64,000 nucleotides of DNA from a virus. Lineage: Duplodnaviria > Caudoviricetes. The position numbers were made by a program, and so were the translations under genes. The stretch lies in the IMG/VR virus record IMGVR_UViG_3300025450_001231; one strand, written 5' to 3'. Below the pieces are notes generated by a model, which worked only from the letters and a program-made list of their open reading frames with translations, was not told the DNA's origin and made no database searches. Below, in pieces: positions 2,152 through 39,572 of the stretch (position 1 is its first letter; each line of letters starts with the position of its first letter).

Positions 2152-2283
2152 ATGTTATACAATGATACTGTTATGCAGGTTAGAGAACTTTTAGAGAGAC
2201 ATTTGGATTTAATCGAAATTGCTCATCGATTACATCTAGACATCAATTATGTAGCAGATATAATAGCATTTTTAAGTACCTAA
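2152..2283 (+). CDS. small hypothetical protein (43 aa, possible helix-turn-helix)
   Basis: GGAGG SD at 2143; MLYNDTVMQVRELLERHLDLIEIAHRLHLDINYVADII. Confidence 0.55.
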   Translation: MLYNDTVMQVRELLERHLDLIEIAHRLHLDINYVADIIAFLST

Positions 2284-2294
2284 AAATCCTACAG

Positions 2295-2302
2295 TATAAA
2301 TA
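2295..2302 (+). promoter_or_regulatory. T4-like late promoter
   Basis: TATAAATA, flanked by ACAGT/ACTGT inverted repeat. Confidence 0.7.
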
Positions 2303-2307
2303 ACTGT

Positions 2308-2397
2308 ATGTTTAATGATGATGTTTATCTAGGCTGCTTGATGGTAGCTATCGTATTCTTGTGCTGGCTTTGGGACTGGTACAACAATTATCGTTAA
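2308..2397 (+). CDS. 29-aa single-pass membrane peptide (not in ORF track)
   Basis: MFNDDVYLGCLMVAIVFLCWLWDWYNNYR; ATG 5 nt after late box. Confidence 0.45.
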   Translation: MFNDDVYLGCLMVAIVFLCWLWDWYNNYR

Positions 2398-2433: not shown

Positions 2434-2441
2434 TATAAATA
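2434..2441 (+). promoter_or_regulatory. T4-like late promoter of the transporter/holin/racemase operon
   Basis: TATAAATA 7 nt upstream of ATG 2449. Confidence 0.75.
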
Positions 2442-2448
2442 CTGTACT

Positions 2449-3282
2449 ATGAAAAAACTTCTACTAACCTTATTTCTACTGTTTTCGACTTTTGTCCTAG
2501 CACAAACACCGACCTCAACAGTTCCGCTACCCCCAGATATAGCTGCAATTAAAAAGCATAACGTGCTGATTGTTGCTATGACTAAAAAAGATAATCCTCC
2601 GTTTTTCAGCGGTGAAGGCGATGATATACACGGACTTGATGTTGATATCGCTCACAGTATTGCTACGGTATTGGGCGTACCGGTTCAGTTTAGACGAGAT
2701 GCCGACAGCTTTGCAGACGTAGTCGAACAGGTTAGAGATGGTCGTGCCGACGTTGCAGTCAGTAAACTGTCAGTTACCAATCCTAGATTACTCACAGTAC
2801 GATTCAGTGTACCTTATATCAAGCTCAAGCAAGCAATGATTGTGAATCGTCTTTGGTTGAGTCAAAACAGTAAAGGTCGAGAAGTGTATCAAGTGATCAG
2901 AGAGTTTGACGGTAAAATCAGTTTTATCCGCAACAGCAGTTACGATACTTTTGCTAGAATCAATTTTCCCCACGCACAGTATATTCCACAAGACCAGTGG
3001 AGCGACATTGTTGCAGATGTTATGAGTGGTAAAATTGCAGCTGCATACAGAGATGAATTTGAATTGAAGAAAATTAGTTTTGAAAAACCTGATGCTGCAT
3101 TGAGTACTAAAACCATTACCATCAGTGACAGTGTAGACAATATTGCCGTGGCAGTTAACTATCAAAGCGTTCAATTGCTAAGTGTGATTGATTATGTAAT
3201 TCGTAATCAATATGGTAATTTGGATAGTGGTAAACTAATGACACGTTATAAAGCTGAAGCATCAACCAAGGACGCAAAATGA
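2449..3282 (+). CDS. periplasmic amino-acid substrate-binding protein (family 3, PBPb)
   Basis: signal peptide MKKLLLTLFLLFSTFVLA; PPFF...GLDVDIA, GRADVAVSKLSVT..R..VRFS.PY motifs. Confidence 0.85.
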   Translation: MKKLLLTLFLLFSTFVLAQTPTSTVPLPPDIAAIKKHNVLIVAMTKKDNPPFFSGEGDDIHGLDVDIAHSIATVLGVPVQFRRDADSFADVVEQVRDGRADVAVSKLSVTNPRLLTVRFSVPYIKLKQAMIVNRLWLSQNSKGREVYQVIREFDGKISFIRNSSYDTFARINFPHAQYIPQDQWSDIVADVMSGKIAAAYRDEFELKKISFEKPDAALSTKTITISDSVDNIAVAVNYQSVQLLSVIDYVIRNQYGNLDSGKLMTRYKAEASTKDAK

Positions 3283-4556
3283 TTTCTCGATTAAAAACTT
3301 TTCTAACAAGCCCGTTGACTATATTGGGCTCTATTGTTGCTGGTGTACTCACTGGCATTTATACACCCAATACCATTGCAGAATTCGAAAGTGTGGGCGG
3401 CATTTATATTATGTTGCTAAAGGTAGTTGTATTGCCTTTCTTGTTTGCTACTATTTTAGTTGGAGTAATTAACCTTCTGCAAAAAGAAGGTAGCCAAGCA
3501 ATGATTAAAAAAATCATTATTGGTTTTATAGCCAGTATGTTTTTTGCGGCCGCAATTGGAGTTATCACTGTTGTTGCCACTGGCACCGATATGACTCCAG
3601 AAAAGAAAACACAATTGGGTGCATTAGTCAACAACAAAAGCGATGGCGGCGATCTTAATATTACATTACACGAGCCAATGCCCGTCACTCCTGCAGCAGA
3701 TCCTATGCTACTTGCACAAAAGTTTATTCCTGAAAATATCTTTGCTACCTTGGATAAAGGCGAAAGTCTCAAGATTGTTATTTTCTGTATGATATTTGGT
3801 ATTGCATTGGGTAACCTAAAAAGCGAAGGCCAAAAAATGTTGGTCAATGTACTGCAAAGTATTCAGCAAGCGAGTATCAGTATCTTTAAGTTTTTGAATT
3901 ACTTTTTGCCCTTTGCCTTATTGGCCATGATTGGTGCACAGGTTGCCAAAGTAGGTGTTGGTATTTTTGGTACTATGGTAGAGTTTATTGTTCAACAAAC
4001 AATAGGTGGACTATTAATTATCATAGCCAGTACTGTTGTAATTTGGATGCGTGCCGGTGGTAGTATTATAACAACTATCAGAGAAACTAAAGAAACGCTA
4101 ATCGTTGCTATCAGCTCACGTAGTAGTTTGGCCTGTATTCCTTATGCACAAGAAGCATTGCACAAGTTGGGATTTGAGCGTAGCGGTGTTGAGCTGACTG
4201 TACCATTGAGTTTTACTGTTAATCGTATTGGCAGTATTGTTTACTATGCTATTGCCACAGTATTCATTTCTGGTATTTACGATATGCCAATGACTGCCAC
4301 TTCATTGATTGTTGTGTTGTTTGGTAGTATTTTAGCTGGATTGGCCAGTGCAGGTACTACTGGTATACTTACTGTTGCCACCGTAGCAGTTGTTTGCGAT
4401 TTGTTAAAGTTACCTTCTGAAGCAGTATTGGTACTATTGATTGCAGTTGATCCATTGATGGATATGATTAGAACTGCTAGCCACGTACACGGTAATGTTG
4501 CGGTAACAGCATTTGTTTGCGATAAAGAAAATGAACCTCAAAGATCTACTACTTGA
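3279..4556 (+). CDS. dicarboxylate/amino acid:cation symporter (DAACS, GltP/DctA family)
   Basis: 425-aa polytopic protein; LLKVVVLP, PENIF, SSRSS, DMIRT motifs; substrate Arg retained. Confidence 0.9.
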   Translation: MISRLKTFLTSPLTILGSIVAGVLTGIYTPNTIAEFESVGGIYIMLLKVVVLPFLFATILVGVINLLQKEGSQAMIKKIIIGFIASMFFAAAIGVITVVATGTDMTPEKKTQLGALVNNKSDGGDLNITLHEPMPVTPAADPMLLAQKFIPENIFATLDKGESLKIVIFCMIFGIALGNLKSEGQKMLVNVLQSIQQASISIFKFLNYFLPFALLAMIGAQVAKVGVGIFGTMVEFIVQQTIGGLLIIIASTVVIWMRAGGSIITTIRETKETLIVAISSRSSLACIPYAQEALHKLGFERSGVELTVPLSFTVNRIGSIVYYAIATVFISGIYDMPMTATSLIVVLFGSILAGLASAGTTGILTVATVAVVCDLLKLPSEAVLVLLIAVDPLMDMIRTASHVHGNVAVTAFVCDKENEPQRSTT

Positions 4557-5139
4557 CATATTAAACTGGATAGGGCAAAGTCCGTTTAGGCTTTTTGCTG
4601 TTATTCTACTATTGATTTTAGGTATGGGCGGCTGGATCGTCTATACCGAAAAAGACAATTTCATGGCCAGCTATCGTGCTCAGCAGGCTTTACCGCATAT
4701 GAATGGCAAATATGAAGAAGCAACTACATTTATATTGAAAAATAGTAGTGCAGAGCTTATAGCAGTATTTGAAGTCAACACCTTACTGAATACTAGAAAA
4801 CTTGTTTACTTTGTTACTCGCAGTGGCGGAGTTGATAAGAGTTATAACGGATCCGATGTTGGCCTACTGACCAAAAATTACGATAATAACAATGATGTTA
4901 TCGGTCTAATGTCAGGTAAGATTCCTTGCAGTCCTTATTTGAAGCCACAGAGCTTTTTGGGATTTGTATATCGCGAAGCCGGAGTTGAATATATGTGTAG
5001 AATCAGCGTCCCTGCAGAGCCCGGAGTATTCATTGGACAGTTAAGTGTAGGATGGAAAACACCGCCTGCCGATCTCGAATCTGCACAAACAATATTAACA
5101 GTTGCTAGCTCATTGTTGTATGCTGGCAAAAAGCCGTGA
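4531..5139 (+). CDS. T4 holin T-like single-pass membrane protein with periplasmic GAF-like domain (start moved from 4513 to ATG 4531)
   Basis: amphipathic N-terminus, one TM (RLFAVILLLILGMGGWIVY), C-domain motifs SSAELIAVF, EYM...G.....W, LES resembling T4 gpT as recalled. Confidence 0.55.
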   Translation: MNLKDLLLDILNWIGQSPFRLFAVILLLILGMGGWIVYTEKDNFMASYRAQQALPHMNGKYEEATTFILKNSSAELIAVFEVNTLLNTRKLVYFVTRSGGVDKSYNGSDVGLLTKNYDNNNDVIGLMSGKIPCSPYLKPQSFLGFVYREAGVEYMCRISVPAEPGVFIGQLSVGWKTPPADLESAQTILTVASSLLYAGKKP

Positions 5140-5825
5140 AAAAATTAGGCGTACTGGGTGGGATGGGCCCAGCTGCAGGTGCAGAATTTTTAGTAAGACT
5201 TATAAATCAAACTCCCGCTAAAAAAGATCAAGAGCATATTCCCGCAGTACTTTGGAGTGATCCCACAGTATCTGATCGTAGTACCAGTTTGTTAAATGGC
5301 GATGATTTACCATGGCCCAAACTTCGAGAAGGTATATTGGGATTAAGAACCGCAGGATGCGATCACATTGTTATACCTTGTAATACCGCACATTTTTGGT
5401 ATGATCGTTTACAAGAGTTAGGAGTGCCTATTACGCATATTGTAGATAGCGTAGCGGATCAATTGAGAGCCAGTGGAGTAGTAAACACCACCATTGGTAT
5501 TATGGGAACCAAAGCTACTATCAGTCAGGGACTGTATCAAAATCGTTTGTCGGCACAAGGTTGGAATTGTATAACCCCTACCAGCAGTGAAATGAACGAA
5601 CTGGTACAACCTGCTATTGATTTGATCAAATCTGGAAAAATGTTATTGGCAGAAGGTATGCTGAACCAAGTTATGGGCACACTAAACGATCAAGGTGCCA
5701 ATGCCATTGTATTGGGTTGTACCGAGTTACCATTGGCTATTCGCAGAACCAGTTTCAAAAATCGTCCTATAGTTAACAGTATTGATAGTTTAGTCAAAGC
5801 TGTACTAAATATTCAATGCGTATAA
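5136..5825 (+). CDS. aspartate/glutamate racemase
   Basis: LGVLGGMGP, CNTAH and GCTEL two-cysteine catalytic motifs; GTGA overlap with upstream gene. Confidence 0.92.
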   Translation: MKKLGVLGGMGPAAGAEFLVRLINQTPAKKDQEHIPAVLWSDPTVSDRSTSLLNGDDLPWPKLREGILGLRTAGCDHIVIPCNTAHFWYDRLQELGVPITHIVDSVADQLRASGVVNTTIGIMGTKATISQGLYQNRLSAQGWNCITPTSSEMNELVQPAIDLIKSGKMLLAEGMLNQVMGTLNDQGANAIVLGCTELPLAIRRTSFKNRPIVNSIDSLVKAVLNIQCV

Positions 5826-6786: not shown

Positions 6787-7057
6787 TTACAATCGTCCCT
6801 TAACCAGCCCTAACTGTTGAATTTTGGGATCACCGATCTTAAGCAAAAAACTTTTAGATCCGTTGTTATACCAGTGGGTCTTTTTCTTTGATTCAAAATA
6901 ATCCACAGAACTAACCCATCCGTTGGGAATAATGTCATTAAGTTTGAATCGTTTCTTTTCTTTTGTTGTTAGATTGTAGTAAAATTTTGTCCCATAAGAA
7001 CCATTATTGCTACCAATTGTTGACAAGATTAATAGTTTTATATATAATATAGAACAT
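6787..7057 (-). pseudogene. GIY-YIG-type homing endonuclease remnant with internal deletion and frameshift
   Basis: ATG 7057 gives MFYIIYKTINLVNNW-stop (GIY-YIG-like start); another frame gives GSNNGSYGTK and HWYNNG...GLVKGRL DNA-binding-type motifs; catalytic core absent. Confidence 0.65.
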
Positions 7058-36182: not shown

Positions 36183-36821
36183 ATGATGGCTGACAGTTTT
36201 ACTTTCAATTTCACGCAAGACCAATTAAATCAAATAGTACCTGGCAATCCTTATATTGACCACTGGTACGAAGCATTTTGTAAAATACTTCCTGATTACG
36301 ATATCAATACTCCTGCACGTGTAGCAGCATTCTTGGCGCAGTGCGCACACGAAAGCAATGGCTTCAAGGCTATTAAGGAAAACTTAAACTATCGTCCAGA
36401 AAGTTTAATGGCCTTGTTTGGCAAACATTTTCCTGGTGGTTTAGCAGAAGCACAACAGTATGCGCACAATCAAGAAATGATTGCCAATAGAATTTATGCA
36501 AATCGTATGGGCAACGGAGACGAAGCATCAGGTGATGGATTTCGTTATTGCGGTCGTGGGCTAATTCAATTGACTGGTAAAAGTAATTACAAGCGTTTTG
36601 CAGAAAGCATTGATACACCATTGGAAGAAGTTACAGAATTCATGGGCACATTTGAAGGATGTATTCAAAGTGCTTGTTGGTTTTGGGAAACCAACAATTT
36701 GAATCGCTGGGCAGACCAAGGCGACATACTTACATTAACTAAAAAAATCAACGGCGGTACACTAGGGTTGGCAGAACGCCAAGCACACTATCAAAAAGCA
36801 GTTCAAGTACTAGGCGGTTAA
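36183..36821 (+). CDS. GH19 endolysin
   Basis: AAFLAQCAHES, ENLNY, GRGLIQLTGK.NY, SACWFW, TKKINGG. Confidence 0.92.
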   Translation: MMADSFTFNFTQDQLNQIVPGNPYIDHWYEAFCKILPDYDINTPARVAAFLAQCAHESNGFKAIKENLNYRPESLMALFGKHFPGGLAEAQQYAHNQEMIANRIYANRMGNGDEASGDGFRYCGRGLIQLTGKSNYKRFAESIDTPLEEVTEFMGTFEGCIQSACWFWETNNLNRWADQGDILTLTKKINGGTLGLAERQAHYQKAVQVLGG

Positions 36822-38192: not shown

Positions 38193-38789
38193 ATGGCATT
38201 AATCGATAGCGTATTAAATCTAATCACAAAACAACCAAAAGATCCGGACGCACCAAAGCCACCAGTAGGTAGCCGTAGCGAACGTGAAGCCAAAATCAAA
38301 GACAAAGCAGGTATGGTAATCAGTGTATTTGCACTGATCCTAGCTGTTAACAGTTGGTACGGCGGAAAACTAAGCAGTATTACATTAAACAATACCATTG
38401 CAGCCAATGATGTGTGGAGTTTTTACGAAGCCAAGAGCATTAAACAAATTTTAGCTCAACAAAGTTTAGACGATGCGGTTGAGCGCCACCAAGATGAAAA
38501 AGCTGCAAAATTAAAAGCCAAAATTGATCGTTACGAAAGTGAACCCGAGACCGGTGACGGCAAAAAAGAACTAATGGACAAAGCACATAAACTAGAAGCC
38601 GAGCGTGACTATGCTAAAAAGCAAAGTCCTTGGATCGGTTTTGCCAGTACACTATACCAATTGAGTATCGTTGTATTATCAGCAAGTATTTTAGCTGTTA
38701 GTATGGAAATGTTCTGGGGAAGTTTCTTTGTTGCAGGATTAGGTTTATTGCTAAGTAGTCAAGGTGTTTGGCTTTGGTTACCAATTTAA
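38193..38789 (+). CDS. membrane protein (DUF4337-like)
   Basis: TM, N.WSFYEAKSIK, coiled coil, two C-terminal TMs. Confidence 0.7.
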   Translation: MALIDSVLNLITKQPKDPDAPKPPVGSRSEREAKIKDKAGMVISVFALILAVNSWYGGKLSSITLNNTIAANDVWSFYEAKSIKQILAQQSLDDAVERHQDEKAAKLKAKIDRYESEPETGDGKKELMDKAHKLEAERDYAKKQSPWIGFASTLYQLSIVVLSASILAVSMEMFWGSFFVAGLGLLLSSQGVWLWLPI

Positions 38790-38825: not shown

Positions 38826-39572
38826 ATGGCTGACCAAGATTATTGCGCACCAAGTGCTAGCGAAACAAAAAAAGAAGATTGGATGAACAGTAAATGGCGT
38901 CCAATGATGGGCTGGATGTATATGCTAGTCTGTACTATGGACTTTGTAGGATTCCCAGTATTGTGGAGTTTATTACAAATGATTAGTCATGGTAATGTAA
39001 GTAGCCAATGGCAACCATTGACTTTACAGGGTGCTGGATTATTTCATATTGCAATGGGTGCAGTTATCGGTATTAGTGCTTATGGACGTACACAGGAAAA
39101 ATTAGGCGGTGCGGCAGGACCTACTATGAGCTTTCCACAAGGCGCAGGGACAACTTATGTGCCACCTGGGCAGGGAATGGTCAATGTAAGCAATCAGCCT
39201 AATATGGGCAGTGGAATGGGCGGAGGGTTTGGAGGAAGCTCTAGTGGGTTTGGAGGAGCAAGTAATGGCGGATTCGGTTCATCAACAGGCGGCAGTTCAG
39301 CATTTGGCGCACCTTCGTCAGGAGGATTCGGCGCATCAACCGGTGGTTTTGGTTCACCAACAACACCCGCCCCAGCCGCAGGAGGCTTTGGCAGCAGTAC
39401 AGGCACTGGAACGGGAACGTTTGGGGCTAGTACAACACCAGCACCAGCAGCCGGAGGCTTCGGAGGGGGTTTTAATAGCGGGTGTGGAACAACAACTCCC
39501 GCAACTTCCGCCCCAGCGTTAAACGCTAAGGGCCAAAAGGTTGTTCCAACAGATCCAGATCCAATACTATAA
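38826..39572 (+). CDS. holin of the 3TM/gene-transfer-release type with FG-rich disordered tail
   Basis: KWRP.MGW.Y..VC..DF..FP, W.PLTLQG.GLFHIAMGA..G..A.GRT.EK; nine FG dipeptides in tail. Confidence 0.7.
   Translation: MADQDYCAPSASETKKEDWMNSKWRPMMGWMYMLVCTMDFVGFPVLWSLLQMISHGNVSSQWQPLTLQGAGLFHIAMGAVIGISAYGRTQEKLGGAAGPTMSFPQGAGTTYVPPGQGMVNVSNQPNMGSGMGGGFGGSSSGFGGASNGGFGSSTGGSSAFGAPSSGGFGASTGGFGSPTTPAPAAGGFGSSTGTGTGTFGASTTPAPAAGGFGGGFNSGCGTTTPATSAPALNAKGQKVVPTDPDPIL

Follow-up and report, generated by a model that had tools for sequence, protein, structure and literature searches.

What is a lysis-family gene doing between a transporter and a racemase? This is the question raised by positions 2449-5825 of a 64,000-nucleotide stretch of viral DNA (IMG/VR record IMGVR_UViG_3300025450_001231; Duplodnaviria, Caudoviricetes), which is referred to as the window throughout. 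Four overlapping open reading frames (ORFs) lie here on the + strand, coding for a periplasmic binding protein, a carrier, a membrane protein designated g3 and a racemase. Profile-profile homology, fold, architecture and the lysis context of its relatives identify g3 as a remote member of the superfamily of the T4 holin T, and the genes on either side of it have counterparts in bacteria. The operon would appear to be a composite late operon, carried by uncultured T4-like phages of a freshwater lineage whose genomes measure some 260-350 kb. Its features are as follows:

2449..3282, +, binding protein: periplasmic family-3 solute-binding protein of 277 amino acids with a signal peptide (Pfam SBP_bac_3)
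3279..4556, +, carrier: divergent SDF/DAACS carrier of 425 amino acids with NRIGS for NMDGT, the substrate Asp and Arg being kept (Pfam SDF)
4531..5139, +, g3: holin-T-superfamily protein of 202 amino acids with a short N-terminal helix, one transmembrane (TM) helix and a GAF-like periplasmic domain (hhalign, AlphaFold2, Foldseek)
5136..5825, +, racemase: pyridoxal phosphate (PLP)-independent two-Cys enzyme of 229 amino acids of the aspartate-racemase/CuyB clade (Pfam Asp_Glu_race, NCBIfam)

The binding protein and carrier genes are joined by an ATGA overlap, the carrier and g3 genes by an overlap of 26 nucleotides and the g3 and racemase genes by a GTGA overlap. The start of g3 is taken as the ATG at 4531, with an alternative TTG at 4513. 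The original prediction, made from the DNA alone, had described four overlapping genes downstream of a late-type promoter motif, and this observation is confirmed by the ORFs, their junctions, their Pfam families and the position of the motif TATAAATA. As each of the four proteins is kept, with 57-89% identity, in dozens of contigs, chance adjacency and the possibility that these ORFs are not genes were rejected. The phage itself has T4-like features in the window, including a gp43-type DNA polymerase (phrog_262), tail-fibre genes, PhoH and DnaJ, and DNA near-identical to the window was found in freshwater and lake metagenomes.

The g3 protein belongs to phrog_31287, whose function is unannotated. 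It has no Pfam family and gives no match to PF11031 (Phage_holin_T) at E ≤10, nor do any of 77 members of its family at E ≤0.01, while T4 T as positive control scores 394.7 bits on this model. Pairwise BLASTP between g3 and T4 T (13-16% identity) gave an E-value of 0.08, which is suggestive only. An exhaustive phmmer search with g3 recovered 104 clusters at 50% identity, mostly of proteins of about 200 amino acids. When an alignment of the 77 family members was compared using hhalign with one of 11 T holins of varied origin (T4-, T5- and Vibrio-type phages), the two families matched with a probability of 96% (E-value 4.5e-9) over 176 collinear columns. For the periplasmic domains by themselves, cut free of the N-terminus and TM helix, the probability was 87% (E-value 4e-6) over 127 columns. 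As negative controls, the ICP1 membrane proteins ORF137 and ORF138 (presumed to be TeaA and ArrA) gave probabilities below 2%, by which they were also ruled out as relatives of g3.

The AlphaFold2 model of g3 built with the 77-sequence alignment has a predicted local distance difference test (pLDDT) score of 95.8, and this alignment was used in place of the single sequence, with which pLDDT was 48. In the model, helices at residues 3-15 and 18-39 are followed by an alpha/beta domain. The predicted architecture, with its short N-terminal segment, single TM helix and large C-terminal alpha/beta domain of probable periplasmic location, is that of the T fold. The top Foldseek matches in the PDB are to holin T of T4, as its periplasmic domain in complexes with antiholin RI (6psk_T, 6px4_B; 6pxe), with target-normalised TM-scores of 0.65-0.70 to 6psk_T and 6px4_B, and these are followed by many GAF domains. 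VIA-align also places 6px4_B first (Z 12.8, 132 residues aligned), tied with generic GAF domains, and among BFVD matches there are annotated T/class III holins as well as many uncharacterised phage proteins composed of a TM helix and a GAF domain. By its modelled structure alone, g3 is a membrane-anchored GAF fold. Since structure cannot separate holin T from a generic GAF domain, the claim of homology is based mainly on hhalign and context, and it is the profile comparison, common architecture and genomic context on which the specific tie of g3 to T rests. Two cysteines are conserved in each family, C133 (invariant) and C156 (in at least 90%) in that of g3 and C175 and C207 (both invariant) in the T holins, their positions being not exactly aligned.

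The genomic context of nine remote relatives of g3 (25-43% identical) was inspected:

P0122, 40% identical to g3: immediately behind a GH108/PG_binding_3 endolysin
P0123, 43%: preceded by a weak LysC-like gene
P0133, 30%: preceded by a tail assembly chaperone and overlapping a Phage_lysozyme gene
P0146, 25%: overlapping the end of a Phage_lysozyme gene
P0137, 33%: flanked by a GTA_holin_3TM gene and an endolysin (phrog_315, E-value 1.8e-34), all overlapping (L067:262-1642)
P0155, 28%: after a gp38-like adhesin, the position of T4 t, with an M23 peptidase three genes further
P0136, 27%: closing a tail-fibre module
P0142 and P0170, 25% and 30%: context uninformative

Five to six of the nine are thus associated with lysis genes, and a transporter-linked relative was found in none of these contexts. 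From these lysis-linked settings it follows that the g3 family is a lysis-cassette family, and the holin-related nature proposed for g3 in the original prediction is borne out by this context together with the profile-profile homology, fold and architecture. The compact cassette of L067, with its GTA_holin_3TM protein, the T-like P0137 and an endolysin, suggests that joint action of T-like and TeaA-type proteins is possible. A g3-family gene is also present in Cronobacter phage S13 (Straboviridae, KC954775.1), where it lies between gp24 and the rnh region (L001:4004-4585). An intact canonical T was not found in this phage, the search giving only a 15-bit fragment with a TGA stop at 153031-153258; T4 t was recovered at an E-value of 5.5e-104 as control.

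In the window, g3 is the only T-like gene and the lysis genes proper form a module elsewhere:

36183..36821, +, GH19-like endolysin (phrog_181 endolysin, E-value 2.4e-76; Pfam Glyco_hydro_19)
38826..39572, +, TeaA-type candidate holin with three TM segments (3TM) and a long C-terminal extension (Pfam GTA_holin_3TM, 26.6 bits with a cut-off of 24.8; phrog_3427 holin)

The GTA_holin_3TM family includes the experimentally shown holin TeaA of phage ICP1 (PMC7182436). A DUF4337 membrane protein (38193-38789) is encoded directly before the candidate holin. As g3 is situated 31 kb from this module, a role for it in lysis in this phage is argued from its relatives only.

Related cassettes were collected as the 47 IMG/VR viral loci found with g3 (66-73% identical); a scan of viral contigs with the carrier as a single protein gave 3 loci, its patterns being too specific, and the cassette count is therefore that of g3-bearing loci. 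The order binding protein-carrier-g3-racemase is present in about 40 of the 47, most of the others being cut by contig ends, and the genes flanking the cassette in the window are not conserved across these loci. Recurrence of the four-gene order in other phages, which the original prediction had offered as a check, was therefore found, in about 40 related viral contigs belonging to one lineage. All copies come from this single freshwater lineage, with 66-81% amino-acid identity, and the synteny may for this reason be inherited instead of repeatedly selected. No match to the cassette was obtained by blastn against 50,697 phage records, and tblastn of the carrier and racemase against phage records gave only matches of ≤37% identity, many of them on mislabelled bacterial contigs; no cultured phage with the cassette was found in the collection searched by tblastn. 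The literature searches made here gave no paper describing such an operon in a phage.

The junctions of the cassette differ in how constant they are. In every locus with both genes, g3 starts 8-29 nucleotides inside the carrier gene, so that the two proteins are probably synthesised at a constant ratio. The gap between binding protein and carrier varies from -4 to +15 nucleotides, with 234 nucleotides in three identical loci. Between g3 and the racemase there may be -4 nucleotides, +1 nucleotide, 52-61 nucleotides with a micro-ORF, or insertions of 1-2 kb. The micro-ORF of the 52-61-nucleotide junctions codes for a hydrophobic peptide of 19-22 amino acids (MRLP(S/T)VI...), its ATG overlapping the stop of g3 and its stop overlapping the ATG of the racemase; it is present at L003:6591-6653, L013:3642-3707, L021:6594-6662, L041:8740-8802 and about 15 others, and is absent from the window. 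The insertions between g3 and racemase (L012:6620-8313, L029:6197-7241 and L041:6604-8739) contain Gly_rich_2 and Metal_hydrol genes, proteins starting IGSGWxIGPGW or a PA14-domain protein of 711 amino acids. At L041 the micro-ORF remains with the racemase despite the 2-kb insertion. A g3 orthologue of 69% identity is also found without the cassette, beside a terminase gene, in L022.

Five related records of 236-349 kb each have one GTA_holin_3TM gene and one GH19 gene, and none gave a match to PF11031. Three of them (G001, G002, G003) have one T-like gene, located in the cassette, and the other two (G004, G005) have two. In the two searched records that are 95-100% complete and have a single T-like gene, that gene is the cassette copy. 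The second T-like paralogue, of 244-250 amino acids, has a Lys/Pro-rich N-terminal extension (L157:5415-6490 in G004; L030:7311-8341). A small gene (93-114 amino acids) with a secreted or lipoprotein-like product, for which no family match was found, overlaps the end of this paralogue, an arrangement that recalls a holin with a periplasmic antiholin, or a spanin.

With regard to the uptake genes, the binding protein belongs to Pfam SBP_bac_3 (PF00497, E-value 8e-17), has an evident signal peptide as read from the sequence (MKKLLLTLFLLFSTFVLA/QT) and is 71-78% identical among the related phage loci. Its best solved relatives are the binding proteins of amino-acid ATP-binding cassette (ABC) transporters. 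No ABC permease or ATPase genes are found in the operon, and what follows the binding protein is an SDF carrier gene, in nine alphaproteobacterial loci as in the phage. The carrier itself is assigned to Pfam SDF (PF00375) with an E-value of 4e-65. In alignment with 9bgz, the best-matching solved aspartate transporter, its DMIRT falls on a DMART stretch with the substrate Asp and Arg of TM8 kept, and its NRIGS on NMDGT, the cation-coupling motif, which is thus absent from the carrier. A His and an Asn occupy the positions of the Asn and Asp of the NVTGD stretch, which we take to be N401 and D405 in GltPh numbering. The motifs of the carrier are kept in all ten aligned phage homologues, DMIRT being invariant. 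The alignment upholds what had been claimed of this protein from its sequence, namely the retained Arg of DMIRT, the Asn at the position of D405 and the change of NMD to NRI. With NRIGS replacing NMDGT, the coupling mechanism of the carrier is uncertain. As a conserved pair, a family-3 binding protein and an SDF carrier without the cation motif may represent secondary transporters of a class not yet described, dependent on a binding protein; no paper on DAACS carriers linked to binding proteins was found in the literature searches made here.

The same pair is present in bacteria. Homologues of the binding protein occur in 14 of 301 sampled alphaproteobacterial genomes, and in nine loci (L159, L160, L161, L162, L163, L165, L173, L174 and L175) the very next gene, in the same orientation, is of the SDF family. 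No g3 gene is found in these alphaproteobacterial binding protein-SDF loci. Compared with the phage proteins, those of the bacterial pairs are 33-43% (binding protein) and 21-36% (carrier) identical. One of these loci, L175, has three tandem binding-protein genes before the carrier. The closest bacterial racemases (about 50% identity) belong to Acetobacteraceae/Rhodospirillales and Alcaligenaceae. Among 80 bacterial racemase loci there is one, L095 in an alphaproteobacterial metagenome-assembled genome, that also has the binding protein (42%) and then the carrier (35%), its racemase (46% identical) being convergent with this pair. The Arg of NRIGS is also present in the L095 carrier, where the motif is CRFGP. 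Beside this locus (L095:4545-7992) there are a D-serine-dehydratase-like gene (Ala_racemase_N and D-ser_dehydrat) and a dCache-HAMP adenylate cyclase, and the neighbourhood has the appearance of an island for D-amino-acid catabolism and sensing.

To judge from these sequences, the binding protein and carrier would be a unit found in cells in the absence of the holin-like gene, and its occurrence in Alphaproteobacteria, once beside a homologous racemase, suggests that the transport and racemase part of the phage operon is host-derived. The original prediction had stated that a host operon lacking the holin-like gene would imply insertion, and such pairs are what was found. This first, host-derived part of the operon would comprise the secreted family-3 binding protein, the divergent SDF/DAACS carrier and the two-Cys racemase, acting on an acidic amino acid of the Asp, Glu or cysteate class, and would raise the import and stereo-conversion of this substrate in the infected cell, feeding host pathways. 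The second part, g3, would be phage-derived, as a diverged protein of the superfamily of T4 holin T.

As regards expression, the region upstream of the operon has the following elements:

2434..2441, +, TATAAATA, a late-promoter-like motif (T4-type) 7 nucleotides 5′ of the binding-protein ATG (motif search)
2295..2302, +, a second TATAAATA, T4-type late-promoter-like, 5 nucleotides before a micro-ORF (motif search)
2308..2397, +, hydrophobic single-TM micro-ORF of 29 amino acids, MFNDDVYLGCLMVAIVFLCWLWDWYNNYR, directly upstream of the cassette (sequence reading)
2237..2264, +, sigma-70-like promoter TAGACA-16-TATAAT, 11/12 (a consensus match only)

In most related loci inspected, [T/C]ATAAATA lies 13-15 nucleotides before the binding-protein ATG, a placement shared with the window. 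An upstream -10 element of the TATAAATA type that is conserved in relatives, as in a T4-type late unit, is therefore present here as a sequence motif. The motif occurs eight times in the window, seven of these on the + strand, against 6.75 expected, which is not above chance. Between the sigma-70-like promoter and the start of the operon at 2449 no terminator-like site was seen, so that expression need not be late only. Of the single late promoter originally proposed, the motif at 2434-2441 and its conserved placement stand, while the motif count at the level of chance and the additional sigma-70-like site do not favour it; the accompanying premise of late-only expression is weakened by the promoter at 2237-2264, from which earlier transcription may be possible. 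A perfect 12/12 sigma-70 consensus promoter is also found further downstream in the window (7020-7048), just upstream of a region that had been read as a two-piece transfer-messenger RNA. Taken with the closest bacterial homologues, this RNA makes Alphaproteobacteria candidate hosts of the phage.

The racemase is assigned to Pfam Asp_Glu_race (PF01177, E-value 7e-37), and its catalytic C82 (IPCNTAH) and C195 (LGCTE) are invariant in 12 phage homologues, in agreement with its earlier description as a two-Cys enzyme. The name Asp/Glu racemase that it had been given fits in family and in closest solved structures, which are aspartate racemases; its best model score, on the other hand, is that of a cysteate racemase, with 217.9 bits on the NCBIfam CuyB equivalog (NF052483, cut-off 190) compared to 158.7 bits on the general asp_race model. 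Its substrate may be Asp, Glu, cysteate or a similar acidic amino acid. In Bilophila wadsworthia, a cluster of an SDF carrier, CuyB, the D-cysteate lyase CuyA and RidA serves for import, racemisation and cleavage (PMC11193023). By analogy with this import-and-racemise cluster, the CuyB score favours a metabolic reading. With cysteate as the substrate, the binding protein and carrier would import L-cysteate, the CuyB-type racemase would make D-cysteate and a host CuyA sulfo-lyase would release pyruvate, ammonium and sulfite. The module would then not be a device for Asp/Glu or D-amino-acid signalling. A score above the CuyB cut-off and the pairing of SDF carrier and CuyB in a characterised cluster argue for such a cysteate function, which is compatible with the explanation preferred below. 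However, no PALP/CuyA-type lyase gene was found in the five related phage records and no CuyA/DcyD-type gene beside the closest bacterial racemases in the loci inspected, while L095, the only bacterial locus with binding protein, SDF carrier and racemase, has a D-serine-dehydratase-like gene instead. Together with the aspartate racemases as nearest structures, this makes cysteate a doubtful choice of substrate.

The explanation slightly favoured here is that a host-derived uptake-and-racemise module and a phage lysis-family gene have come together in one transcription unit, the latter still acting in lysis, for which the balance of probability is a little better than even. The g3 protein would most likely still be a lysis protein, either as a holin of class III type or as a partner or regulator of a holin, working with the GH19 endolysin and 3TM holin. 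Several points weigh against this explanation. The distance of g3 from the endolysin (36183) and 3TM holin (38826) is one of them, as are its failure to match the curated Pfam model of T and the structural tie of holin T with ordinary GAF domains. The metabolic pay-off of the racemase is put in question by the missing lyase, both in the phages and next to the bacterial racemases. In addition, the invariant overlap of carrier and g3, and the lack of insertions within binding protein-carrier-g3, could mean that g3 serves the transporter and not lysis. This last thought may be taken further, with g3 exapted as an accessory or regulatory subunit of a binding-protein-dependent carrier, for example as a membrane-anchored periplasmic adaptor or gate with no role in lysis. 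The constant overlap of 8 to 29 nucleotides would fit this, as would the uninterrupted binding protein-carrier and carrier-g3 junctions (except for the 234-nucleotide gap in three identical loci), a carrier that may need partners as it is without the NMDGT cation motif, and a phage that already has a candidate holin. Yet bacterial pairs with the same motif change do without g3, which disfavours the idea, the remote relatives of g3 are lysis-linked and never transporter-linked in the nine contexts, and the L022 orthologue is free of a carrier; a purely accessory role is therefore considered decidedly improbable.

The original prediction went in another direction, towards lysis timing under the control of a ligand. 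In such a system the GAF-like domain of g3 would sense the transported amino acid, its D-enantiomer or the loaded binding protein, the last in the role of the antiholin RI, and lysis would be advanced or delayed by the level of external nutrient or D-amino acid. The T4 counterpart of the g3 domain does receive the signal for lysis inhibition, GAF folds commonly bind small ligands, and the binding protein is secreted to the compartment in which the g3 domain would be found. Moreover, the g3 gene is placed between those of carrier and racemase and, in all loci with both carrier and g3, begins within the carrier gene, the cassette is kept while its flanks differ, and in two near-complete relatives the cassette copy is the single T-like gene. 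However, the linkage may simply be inherited within one lineage, the orthologue in L022 has no cassette, insertions of 1-2 kb separate g3 and racemase in L012, L029 and L041, and the bacterial binding protein and carrier unit exists without g3. There is, besides, a lysis module elsewhere in the phage with an endolysin and a TeaA-type holin, and the racemase is cytoplasmic, so that a D-amino-acid signal would need export. Ligand gating in this general form is considered unlikely. For g3 as a nutrient-gated lysis regulator, modelled on T4 holin T and RI, whose GAF-like domain would read an acidic amino acid, its D-form or the loaded binding protein and set the time of lysis directly or via the 3TM holin, the prospects are judged slightly slimmer. 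Direct cross-talk, by which nutrient uptake and lysis would be functionally linked, is thus possible but unproven, and the composite operon with g3 in lysis is the reading retained.

These findings link phrog_31287, a family of over 100 clusters at 50% identity, with lysis cassettes and with the superfamily of T4 holin T, and thereby extend the class III holins well beyond the T4- and T5-like coliphages. They also describe a rare auxiliary module of large freshwater phages, a complete secondary uptake system of bacterial type with a racemase, which hints at a part for acidic or D-amino acids, or for cysteate, in lake infections. To our knowledge, lysis inhibition is so far understood only for superinfection signals, and a nutrient-gated g3 would, if true, be a case of lysis inhibition driven by an environmental metabolite instead. 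With a lysis-family gene nested in the operon, lysis timing tied to a metabolite becomes directly testable.

Among known systems, T4 holin T with its antiholin RI (6PSK, 6PX4, 6PXE; PF11031) is the nearest to g3, having a short cytoplasmic N-terminus, one TM helix, a periplasmic GAF-like domain of about 150 amino acids and two conserved Cys residues. To this can be added the profile-profile homology, the best structural match, a late-promoter-like motif upstream and the position of g3 relatives after tail-fibre genes or beside endolysins. The two differ in sequence (13-16% identity), in the Pfam model, which g3 does not match, and in the location of the conserved Cys residues, and unlike T, g3 has no adjoining RI-like gene in the window, is found inside a transporter-racemase operon and shares its phage with a TeaA-type holin. 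The TeaA/ArrA system of ICP1 (PMC7182436) is comparable in that the window has a GTA_holin_3TM protein (38826-39572) near an endolysin, and that the relative P0137 lies between such a holin and an endolysin, the place expected of an antiholin or co-holin. However, g3 is unrelated in sequence to ORF137/138, the presumed TeaA/ArrA, and lies 31 kb from the 3TM holin.

The cysteate cluster of B. wadsworthia (PMC11193023) has in common with the operon an SDF carrier and a PF01177 two-Cys racemase, the phage enzyme passing the CuyB cut-off. It differs in having CuyA and RidA, which are not found in the phage, while the phage adds a binding protein and a holin-like gene, and identity between the carriers is low. 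The alphaproteobacterial SBP_bac_3 and SDF pairs are alike to the phage genes in order and orientation, with a homologous racemase (46%) also in L095, but they have no g3-like gene and the L095 racemase is convergent, not co-directional. The operon brings together known kinds, a member of the T-type holin family and an auxiliary module for uptake. Among phage genes for nutrient capture, the PstS of cyanophages is already familiar as a periplasmic binding protein that is expressed in infection and raises nutrient uptake. The cyanophage protein relies on the ABC transporter of its host, whereas the phage here encodes a secondary carrier of its own, grouped in an operon with an enzyme and a lysis-family gene.

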